Positions 39,989-41,585 of a stretch of DNA of 57,352 bases are shown here, piece after piece. The stretch spans positions 687 through 58,038 of the forward strand of contig CAYODB010000001.1 of NCBI GenBank assembly GCA_964402495.1. The letters run 5' to 3'. Under the pieces are notes generated by a model. It searched no databases. It was not told the origin of the DNA and saw nothing but the letters and a program-made list of their open reading frames with translations. A program made the position numbers and the translations under genes. This stretch comes from an uncultured Bordetella sp. (GTDB lineage: Bacteria > Pseudomonadota > Gammaproteobacteria > Burkholderiales > JACQAP01). Each line of letters begins with the position of its first letter. Position 1 is the stretch's first letter.

Positions 39989-40369
39989 ATGGCCTGGATC
40001 GCAAACGGCGTCCTCATTGTCCACGCGCTGTTCGTGGCGTTTGTCGTCGGCGGACTCGCGTTTGTGTGGCTGGGCGCGTGGCGCGGCTGGGTCGCCGCGC
40101 GTAATTTTCGCTTTCGCGTGCTTCATCTTGCGGCAATCCTATTTGTCGCGCTGGAATCCCTGGCCGGCATCGCCTGCCCGCTGACCGTATGGGAAGACTC
40201 GCTGCGGGGCGGGAACGCAAACGGAGACTTCCTCGCGCGTTGGCTGCATCGGGTGCTGTATTACGATTTCCCCGCCTGGGCATTCATCCTCGTCTACGTG
40301 CTGTTCGCCCTGGCCGCAATCCTCACGTTCCTCCTCATCCCGCCGCGAAAGCAATCGTCGATCGGGTAG
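39989..40369 (+). CDS. DUF2784 family membrane protein
   Basis: Start at MAWIANGVLIVHALFVAFVV. 126 aa, 4 TMS, with the CPLTVWE motif. The last two codons and the stop lie inside the intron on the opposite strand. Confidence 0.75.
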   Translation: MAWIANGVLIVHALFVAFVVGGLAFVWLGAWRGWVAARNFRFRVLHLAAILFVALESLAGIACPLTVWEDSLRGGNANGDFLARWLHRVLYYDFPAWAFILVYVLFALAAILTFLLIPPRKQSSIG

Positions 40370-40987
40370 GGGACCGGGTCACCCCGGTCGCCCTCCCACA
40401 CCACCGGACGTGCGGTTCCGCATCCGGCGGTTCATGGAATGCGCTGGAGGCGCTGCACCGTATCGAGCAGCGACACCAGCCCCAAATGGTCGAACCAGGA
40501 CTTCGGGCAGGCAGCGTGCAGGTGTCCACCATGCCCGCCTGATCTGCCCGACCCGCTTCCGCCTTCATCGGCTTGCCTTGAGAATCCCGCCGCCTACTCA
40601 CGGCACTTCACGTTCTGCCCTTCGGGTCGCACTGACCCCTATCTATGGCCTCGGCTGACTTCTGGCGACCCATCCCAACACCTCTCGATATCGGTAGCAC
40701 AGGGCAGACCGCCAGATCTCCCCGGGTATTGCGCACGCACCTTCACGCTTATGCCTGTCGGATCTACGCCGCAGCGTTCCGTGCAAGTATCGGGCTTCAC
40801 AGATATTTGCCTGCTCACCCCGCTGCGTCGCCTCTATCCGTTTCCTGTTCGTCCGGCCAGCGCTTTGCCTACAGCTTCCTCCCGATTCGCAGTCGCCCGC
40901 GACACCCTTGCCGTTCGGCTAACACTTCCCCCTGCCGGGTGTGTAGAGGACTTCCACCTCCAGGTACATGCGCCCTGCCGGGCGCAC
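40361..40987 (-). mobile_element. ORF-less group II intron (ribozyme domains only)
   Basis: The minus-strand RNA begins GUGCG. A domain-V-like hairpin lies at 40400-40433 (GAACCGCCGGAUGCG-GAAC-CGCACGUCCGGUGGU with a 2-nt bulge). A domain-VI-like hairpin has a single bulged A (40367) 7 nt from the 3' end ...CCCGAU. There is no credible RT ORF. Confidence 0.7.
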
Positions 40988-40992
40988 AAATG

Positions 40993-41018
40993 AAAAGCCC
41001 CCGGTCGCGGGGGCTTTT
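40993..41018. terminator. bidirectional rho-independent terminator (cytochrome b561 / ancestral DUF2784 end)
   Basis: aaaagcccccggtcgcgggggctttt: a GC stem flanked by an A-run and a T-run. Confidence 0.75.
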
Positions 41019-41039: not shown

Positions 41040-41585
41040 TTATTTTCCGGGCAGGATGCGCTGGAACACACCGTCGCGGTTGATCAGGAGATGCTTGAGG
41101 GCGGCGAGGATATGGATGGCAACCAGCACGATCAGCAAGGTGGCGGTGACGCCGTGGATACCCTGGAGCAAGGAATAAATCTCGCGGCTCTCCCAGCCCA
41201 TGGGCGGTATCTTGAACAGCCCGAAATAAGTAACGCCGTACTTGGTGAACTGAGAAGCCGAAAAACCTGACAGCGGCATCAGGACCAGGCAGAGATACAG
41301 CAAGGCATGGCTGATTTTCGAGGCCTGCACCTGCCAGTCCGGCAGGAATGCCGGCAGCGGGGGGGGCGGATTCTTTGCCCTCCACCACAACCGCAGCAGC
41401 ACCAGGATGGCCACCGTCACGCCGATCGACTTGTGCAGGTTGAAGAAAAAAGTCCGTTCCGGCGTGCCCTTTGGAATGTCGCCCATGTACAAGCCCAGGC
41501 CGATCATTCCAAGCACCAGAACACTGATCAGCCAGTGAAAGGCGATCGCCGGTTTCGTGTAACGCCGGATGCTGCCGTTGCTCAT
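41040..41585 (-). CDS. cytochrome b561 family protein (CybB-like)
   Basis: 181 aa, 4 TMS, conserved His ligands ([24 protein letters not shown]). Confidence 0.9.

Follow-up and report, generated by a model that had tools for sequence, protein, structure and literature searches.

What is the 627-nucleotide (nt) non-coding block that separates the convergent genes for a DUF2784 protein and cytochrome b561 in an uncultured Bordetella sp., and how did these two genes come to face each other across it? We addressed both questions in a 57,352-nt stretch of contig CAYODB010000001.1 (assembly GCA_964402495.1), referred to below as the window, in which an earlier note made from the sequence alone had read positions 40361-40987 as a group II intron without an open reading frame (ORF), parked behind a terminator on the minus strand. 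The block is almost certainly a class C (IIC) group II intron that has lost the ORF of its intron-encoded protein (IEP), a reverse transcriptase (RT)/maturase, and it lies on one of two reciprocal hybrid junctions between sites that are separate in relatives. The history that we favor, in which an ORF-deleted IIC intron marks an inversion made by recombination with a sister copy and now persists as a resident relic, has in our estimate a probability of roughly 75%.

The covariance-model search that the earlier note had proposed was run with cmscan and gave only three matches above Rfam gathering thresholds in the 57-kb window, all of them to group II intron models, on the minus strand and within 40361-40987. 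The block starts with GUGCG (40983-40987) and finishes with ...GAU at 40361, in line with the group II consensus of 5' GUGYG and 3' AY. The RF00029 match ends at the 3' boundary, 40361, and alignments to every full-length relative begin at intron nt 1 and stop at nt 627 with the flanks unaligned; the boundaries first proposed, GUGCG at 40987 and CCCGAU at 40361, are thus exact. The 627-nt sequence also folds more stably than its shuffled versions (z = -3.4). The intron and its ribozyme features are as follows.

40361-40987, minus strand: ORF-deleted IIC group II intron, 627 nt, GUGCG to CCCGAU; three Rfam matches, colinear with full-length relatives except for one internal deletion.
40988-40991, minus strand: intron-binding site 1 (IBS1), the last 4 nt of the 5' exon, AUUU; 4/4 paired with exon-binding site 1 (EBS1).
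40902-40732, minus strand: distal domain I (RF02001 group-II-D1D4-3; cmscan 127 bits, E=8e-26, full model).
40876-40880, minus strand: AGGAA in the 11-nt unpaired epsilon-prime region (RF02001 alignment; feature described in PMC1702495).
40805-40808, minus strand: EBS1, AAAU, intron nt 180-183, in domain I loop GCAAAUAU (nt 178-185); pairs with exon AUUU.
40697-40617, minus strand: domain II/domain III segment (RF01998 group-II-D1D4-1; 53.1 bits versus a gathering threshold of 35, full model).
40432-40361, minus strand: domains V and VI (RF00029; 46.4 bits versus a gathering threshold of 40, model positions 1-77 of 77).
40401-40430, minus strand: domain V, 30 nt, with a 9-bp basal helix, AC bulge, 3-bp distal helix and GAAC loop (RF00029 alignment; IIC criteria of PMC1702495).
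40364-40397, minus strand: domain VI, whose bulged branch-site A (40367) lies 7 nt from the 3' end (RF00029 alignment).

These alignments also assign the ribozyme to class C. The published hallmarks of IIC introns are CGC in place of AGC in domain V, a distal stem shorter by 2 bp, an 11-nt epsilon-prime bulge containing AGGAA, and an IBS1-EBS1 pairing of 3-4 bp; they lack EBS2 and are preceded by a terminator stem-loop, 3-11 nt ahead of the splice site (PMC1702495). In the window, the CGC triad is found at 40427-40429 (CCGC stands opposite GAGC of the model in the cmscan alignment), four model columns of the domain V distal stem are deleted so that 3 bp and the GAAC loop are left, and AUCGGGAGGAA occupies the 11 unpaired epsilon-prime columns of RF02001. 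The two traits from which class C had originally been suggested, the CGC triad and a terminator-proximal insertion, are both IIC-defining in this source and both present in the sequence. Domain V had been described correctly with regard to its GAAC loop and 9-bp basal helix; its length (30 nt, not 34), bulge (AC, not CG) and upper helix (3 bp, not 4) had to be revised to fit the register used by Rfam and by publications on IIC introns, and the Rfam alignment agrees on the bulged A (40367) and its distance of 7 nt from the end. A ribozyme-based assignment to class IIC is valid whatever the IEP (PMC4424553).

Pairing between EBS and IBS, named at the outset as a property that a genuine intron should have, is present as AAAU-AUUU, and it covaries across the family. 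For family statistics, we gathered relatives by a DNA pattern of the intron 5' end in genome and metagenome contigs, which gave at least 239 family loci. When three EBS1 positions were compared with exon positions -1 to -3 over the 136 distinct 5' junctions among the matches listed, 347 of 408 cells were paired, versus 224 ± 8 upon shuffling exons among introns. The copy from Azoarcus, with EBS1 CAA opposite exon UUG, exemplifies this covariation.

The surroundings of the intron are likewise those of its class, and involve three features.

40993-41018, bidirectional: intrinsic-terminator hairpin of cytochrome b561, AAAAGCCCCCG-CGAC-CGGGGGCUUUU, at the ancestral site A defined below (RNAfold, 11 bp, -19 kcal/mol, stem ending 5 nt before the intron).
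41040-41585, minus strand: cytochrome b561 gene (Pfam PF01292).
39989-40369, plus strand: DUF2784 gene, 126 aa, on the 3'-exon side, the ancestral site B (Pfam PF10861).

The cytochrome b561 terminator hairpin, which also occurs at site A in intron-less relatives (L027-L031), is the 5'-exon stem-loop recognized by IIC introns. The insertion is terminator-proximal, as had been claimed, and the distance from the stem given by RNAfold is 5 nt rather than 9 nt. A simple terminator scanner left this hairpin unflagged, probably because A/U pairs extend the stem and cut into the T tail, and RNAfold showed it instead. Its setting is typical of the family: for the 227 distinct flanks among the matches listed, the 40 nt upstream have a mean folding energy of -20.2 kcal/mol compared to -9.0 for control 40-mers, 223 of these 227 flanks reach -8 kcal/mol or better, and the T content of the last 10 nt before the intron is 0.72 compared to 0.21 in controls. 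We rejected the alternative that the block is ordinary conserved intergenic sequence or some other structured RNA, and give it next to no credence: three Rfam models match it with E values down to 8e-26, relatives have an RT/maturase ORF at the same position, and the orthologous loci of relatives, where conserved intergenic sequence would have been expected to recur, lack the 627 nt with exact boundaries.

Comparison with full-length relatives revealed how the coding sequence was lost. A blastn search against plasmids identified a full-length relative with an annotated ltrA gene on pAZKH of Azoarcus sp. KH32C, to which the window intron aligns over the 5' 440 nt and the 3' 164 nt, with the middle unaligned. 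At 90-93% identity, other full-length relatives of 1,880-1,890 nt are closer, and all align to intron nt 1-467 and 464-627; in one of them, from an uncultured betaproteobacterium (L097; 1,882 nt, 91-93% identical), nt 465-1718 are the part missing from the window element. This pattern of alignment implies a single out-of-frame deletion of 1,254 nt, and judged by it the element is a deletion derivative of a retroelement of ~1.88 kb. Three features record the event.

40521-40524, minus strand: deletion junction CACC (intron nt 464-467), from which 1,254 nt of IEP coding sequence have been lost (3-4-nt overlap against all full-length relatives).
40521-40568, minus strand: what remains of the 5' end of the IEP ORF within domain IV, ATG and 15 further codons (aligned with the beginning of the 464-aa RT/maturase ORF in L097 and other relatives).
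40432-40524, minus strand: what remains of the 3' end of that ORF, its last 30 codons and TGA at 40432-40434 (tblastn matches residues 439-462 of Azoarcus LtrA to 40515-40444).

The two remnants are out of frame with each other, and the IEP stop codon overlaps the base of domain V. The C-terminal remnant carries F>C and S>P substitutions at positions that are invariant in the best-matching intact IEPs listed, which suggests relaxed constraint. The IEPs of relatives (464-465 aa) possess RVT_1 and GIIM domains and no endonuclease domain, a composition that fits class C. Within the intron itself, Pfam recognized no domain in any ORF, and a tblastn search of the window with a related IEP (LtrA) gave only the 24-aa C-terminal remnant, in keeping with the original statement that no RT/maturase ORF is present. 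Two other origins for this arrangement were considered and rejected: a primordially ORF-less intron, as both ends of the IEP ORF remain, and an ORF remnant that serves as a mini-protein, as the remnants are out of frame and without a Pfam match. In a search for the donor, none of the best 120 of at least 7,978 IEP relatives was identical to the window remnant. These relatives of the RT/maturase of this IIC subgroup (E<=1e-100) lie mostly on contigs of ~2 kb, as expected of multi-copy repeats, which break assemblies.

Public assemblies call a gene across the intron, a 184-aa ORF antisense to it (40439-40993, plus strand), for which 356 'homologues' are found at E<=1e-3. All 356 cover only the part antisense to ribozyme domains I-III, and the family looks like a spurious one made by the conserved RNA.

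How, then, did DUF2784 and cytochrome b561 become neighbors? Deleting 40361-40987 in silico joins ...CAA TCG TCG/AAA TGA (here and below a slash marks the insertion point), exactly as the earlier note had it, and its prediction of an intron-less DUF2784 protein ending in ...QSSK was borne out: the 90%-identity cluster contains eight members of 125 aa ending in ...PPRKQSSK, versus 126 aa ending in ...QSSIG in the window. Again as proposed, the window gene takes its last two codons and stop, ATC GGG TAG (40361-40369), from the strand opposite the 3' end of the intron in domain VI. What failed was the further prediction that the cytochrome b561 terminator would serve DUF2784 as well, an arrangement present in none of the relatives examined. 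In relatives, DUF2784 DNA is identical to the predicted empty site through ...CAATCGTCG/AAATGAA and then continues into a different hairpin and a different convergent gene. At this location, site B (L013-L021), DUF2784 shares its hairpin with flavocytochrome c sulfide dehydrogenase (FCSD), which is followed by cytochrome c and ClpB. At a second location, site A (L022-L031), cytochrome b561 faces a 350-aa iron-type ABC transporter ATPase that ends in ...FPK, and the hairpin between these two genes is the one that precedes the intron in the window. The sequences of the two sites in relatives without the intron are given below.

Empty site A: GGGGGCTTTTCATTT/CGGGAACG.
Empty site B: GCCCGTTTCATTT/CGACGATT.

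The window therefore consists of the left side of site A and the right side of site B. Both targets overlap the AAA-TGA end of a convergent gene, and they share 10 nt, TTTCATTT/CG (window plus strand 40986-40995 with 40359-40360; empty sites of L027 and L013), which is why in-silico removal of the intron looked clean. A full-length relative in another organism (L147) is inserted in TTTTTCATTT/CGAGAG, that is, in the same TTTCATTT/CGA motif; the shared TTTCATTT/CG may reflect a target preference beyond IBS1, or may be coincidence.

The other halves of the two sites are joined elsewhere. Cluster look-ups placed an FCSD cluster member together with a 351-aa ABC ATPase ending in ...FPIG (versus 350 aa and FPK in relatives) on one contig of 101,776 nt. 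The locus that spans this junction (L032) reads from the FCSD terminator, GCCGCCCGTTTCATTT / GTGCGCCC..., to ...CCCGAT / CGGGAACGCG on the ABC ATPase side. Between the two slashes is a sister copy of the intron.

L032 7048-7246, minus strand: intron stump of 199 nt, nt 1-169 fused to nt 598-627, without distal domain I and domains II-V (sequence comparison).

Over the 199 shared nt, the stump and the window copy differ solely at nt 134. We compared the 400-nt flanks of the window and L032 to both sides of sites A and B in a four-way test, with the following outcome.

Window 5' flank: site A left, 92%; wrong partners, 57-58%.
Window 3' flank: site B right, 97.5%; wrong partners, about 60%.
L032 5' flank: site B left, 96%; wrong partners, 56-58%.
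L032 3' flank: site A right, 95%; wrong partners, 58-59%.

Thus, we recovered both the reciprocal hybrid junctions (window; L032/L275) and the ancestral arrangement in outgroups (L013-L021, L022-L031). The two junctions occur together in ENA assembly ERZ505514, where NODE_520 has a coverage of 9.4x and NODE_678 of 8.8x, and again in each of four JGI samples (3300015360, 3300020192, 3300020219 and 3300020596), and gene orders on all four sides agree with a simple inversion. We consider it very probable that recombination between the two introns made this inversion.

Two other accounts of the hybrid junctions deserve attention. One dispenses with an inversion and supposes that assemblers mis-joined two intron loci over the 5' segment that the copies share (141 identical nt, one mismatch and 35 nt). 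This stretch is longer than usual k-mer sizes, and both the pure k-mer assemblies of Logan and one JGI sample break inside the intron; the Logan contigs run 22 nt into it from the 5' side, and those from the ABC ATPase side reach 28 nt into the 3' end. If the Logan k-mer size is 31, two copies sharing 8-nt and 2-nt flanks predict precisely those breaks. Against a mis-join, all contigs that cross the repeat show the same hybrid linkage, and for each junction they come from four or more samples and from two independent pipelines, ENA SPAdes and JGI; no ancestral linkage was recovered from these samples, and the repeat is shorter than a typical paired-end insert. We therefore regard an assembly artifact as very improbable.

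The other account, which we judge improbable though slightly less so, reverses the order of events: illegitimate recombination at the 10-nt microhomology TTTCATTTCG of both terminators would have inverted the segment, and two introns would then have inserted independently at the hybrid sites. The ancestral empty sites are indeed identical for 10 nt across the insertion point, and both hybrid sites remain valid IIC targets. Such a sequence of events, however, requires a rare microhomology inversion and two later insertions exactly on both breakpoints, and is less parsimonious than recombination between repeats of 0.2-1.9 kb, an ordinary route to inversion. The shared ATTT/C, moreover, is already accounted for by EBS1 and the target rule, and the same TTTCATTT/CGA motif is occupied by the unrelated full-length relative L147.

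Under the history that we prefer, an IIC retroelement with EBS1 = AAAU would have homed to two look-alike terminators, each a stem-loop followed by ATTT/C. One copy would have inserted 5 nt past the terminator stem of cytochrome b561 and in the same orientation as that gene, with the target chosen by the stem-loop and the 4-bp EBS1-IBS1 pairing. Each insertion would have fallen 3 nt inside the end of the convergent gene, the reason for which both genes changed from K-stop to IG-stop, IG and the stop codon being the antisense of the intron's last 9 nt. The inverted copies would then have recombined homologously and flipped the chromosomal segment between them, which would have left DUF2784 (site B right) linked through the window intron to the cytochrome b561 terminator (site A left), and the ABC ATPase linked through the sister copy to the FCSD terminator. 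The window copy lost its RT/maturase gene in a single deletion of 1,254 nt with 3-4 nt of microhomology, and what remains is a ribozyme of 627 nt that appears structurally intact; the sister lost most of its ribozyme to an internal deletion. Deletion and recombination could have occurred in either order.

Several observations weigh against this history or parts of it. No pre-inversion genome with an intron at site A or B is present among those sampled, and we accordingly infer, rather than observe, that insertion preceded recombination. GC skew is weakly negative across the window (1-57352) with no change of sign at the intron junction, and is uninformative. Linkage over the 177-nt shared 5' segment depends on short-read assemblies, one JGI sample of which (L008, L034) leaves it unresolved. 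With respect to the ribozyme, no intron column covaried with the first 3'-exon nt in the manner of an EBS3-IBS3 pairing, the best complementarity being 0.42 (60 complete copies among the matches listed). Lastly, the three best candidate IEP relatives that were looked up derive from other, unrelated samples, and none was traced to the source samples.

The earlier note had left the state of the element as a fossil or an intron served by a maturase in trans. That choice can now be restated for a deletion derivative of a ~1.88-kb retroelement whose sister copy, reduced to 199 nt, is dead by the evidence of its sequence. The window copy lacks a maturase in cis, and its transcription would depend wholly on polymerases that read through the cytochrome b561 terminator; the intron would splice or move only with a related IEP from elsewhere in the genome, and not efficiently alone. 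If it were spliced, the ligated exons would read ...CUUUUCAUUU/CGACGAUUG. For DUF2784, the consequence of its present location is the loss of an adjacent terminator, the nearest hairpin on its strand now lying 627 nt downstream.

The ribozyme of the window copy appears structurally intact, with 130 of 133 RNAalifold family consensus pairs (97.7%), a value in the range of full-length copies. One departure is the G at intron nt 134 (window 40854), where relatives and the sister stump have U, which disrupts a conserved U-A pair in domain I; another difference from its closest relatives is a compensatory U-A to G-C change in domain V. These features bear on the possibility that the 627-nt element is still an active non-autonomous retroelement, spliced and retro-mobilized in trans by the RT/maturase of a full-length sibling, as the group II counterpart of a miniature inverted-repeat transposable element (MITE). 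We consider this unlikely, albeit with more in its favor than the other alternatives: the consensus pairs and all catalytic landmarks checked are retained, the domain V change is compensatory, ORF-less derivatives of this subfamily can multiply (at least 10 near-identical 619-nt copies in a single Acidobacteriaceae chromosome), and bacteria with an ORF-less intron almost always have a related IEP-encoding intron as well (PMC4424553). On the other hand, the window, the source samples and the public matches listed yielded no other copy with this deletion junction; the only other copy in the source samples is the 199-nt stump, whose deletion is different and larger; the antisense-ORF cluster has no near-identical member elsewhere; no IEP is traceable to the source samples; and the G at nt 134 breaks a pair that relatives and the sister copy have kept. 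On balance, we lean slightly toward a window copy that is now an inactive relic. A combined scenario, in which two terminator-homing IIC copies were the substrate of an inversion in a free-living Burkholderiales and the 627-nt copy is nonetheless still a functional ribozyme, spliced and mobilized in trans by a sibling's IEP as one of many widespread and under-counted non-autonomous, MITE-like IIC introns, strikes us as doubtful, marginally more so than trans-mobilization considered by itself.

The search for relatives also disclosed other reduced introns. The chromosome of an Acidobacteriaceae metagenome-assembled genome (OY969908.1, represented by eight of our loci) contains at least 10 ORF-less IIC introns of 619 nt that differ by 0-1 mismatch and lie behind different terminators, as well as head-to-tail tandem arrays of 2-3 intron copies; the 619-nt element looks like a recently amplified non-autonomous intron. 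Among plasmid records, 366 match the window intron, including 242 from Escherichia. ORF-less IIC relatives occur on E. coli IncHI1B and IncF plasmids and an Aeromonas IncP-1 plasmid, all conjugative or mobilizable (L002 1928-2640, 713 nt; L003 1929-2610, 682 nt; L004 1949-2476, 528 nt), and that of L002 is followed directly by a match to the small RNA STnc490. Mini-introns reduced to part of the domain I stem at the 5' end and the last part of domain VI at the 3' end were seen at 199 nt (L032) and at 168 nt in Pelomonas cellulosilytica (L045), indicating that extreme internal deletion arose at least twice. The 60 distinct complete copies among the matches listed include short ones of 168, 451, 619, 627, 643, 885 and 910 nt. 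According to PMC4424553, bacterial group II introns without an ORF are rare, retain IEP remnants and usually have siblings in the same genome; that ~60 complete copies among the matches listed include seven independent ORF-less or mini derivatives hints that they are not so rare in this subfamily.

The window intron resembles the IIC introns B.h.I1 of Bacillus halodurans and O.i.I1 of Oceanobacillus iheyensis in its compact ribozyme, CGC triad, short domain V stem, AGGAA bulge, 3-4-bp IBS1-EBS1 pairing and insertion a few nt past an intrinsic terminator, and in that the RT/maturase of its relatives is endonuclease-less. It differs from them in having no IEP (1,254 nt of domain IV are gone) and in having inserted 3 nt within the coding sequence of a convergent gene, at its end, instead of in wholly non-coding DNA. 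With the ORF-less bacterial group II introns, a category of the Zimmerly database (PMC4424553), it shares the state of an IEP-less retroelement derivative that retains IEP remnants and presumably depends on an IEP in trans; unlike the 619-nt Acidobacteriaceae element, it shows no sign of having multiplied after ORF loss. The IIC-attC introns of integrons have the same ribozyme class and a stem-loop target as well, but here the target is a Rho-independent terminator with its T-tract rather than attC, and no integron is nearby.

A rearrangement bracketed by two inverted copies of a mobile element, with partner switching exactly at the element's borders, has parallels in inversions mediated by repeats such as insertion sequence (IS) elements and rRNA operons, and in Wolbachia, for which a passage of PMC11376236 (citing Leclercq et al. 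2011) notes group II introns at synteny breaks. Unlike those cases, the present one involves short, ORF-less intron remnants in a free-living member of the Burkholderiales, with both empty sites and both reciprocal junctions at base-pair resolution. The location of IIC introns behind terminators is already textbook knowledge (PMC1702495; PMC8919778). This case stands out for how much of its history is preserved, with two empty sites, two hybrid junctions and two stages of decay all on record.

Together, these findings leave the known biology of group II introns unchanged. They illustrate that an IEP-less group II intron can be recognized from sequence alone, although RT-based annotation overlooks such elements and gene callers predict a spurious 184-aa antisense protein in their place. 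The locus exemplifies the repeatable target choice of IIC introns, a stem-loop and then ATTT/C, and preserves two steps of decay, loss of the ORF and then loss of the ribozyme. It also documents how introns that home to terminators can rearrange bacterial chromosomes and give convergent genes new C-termini.

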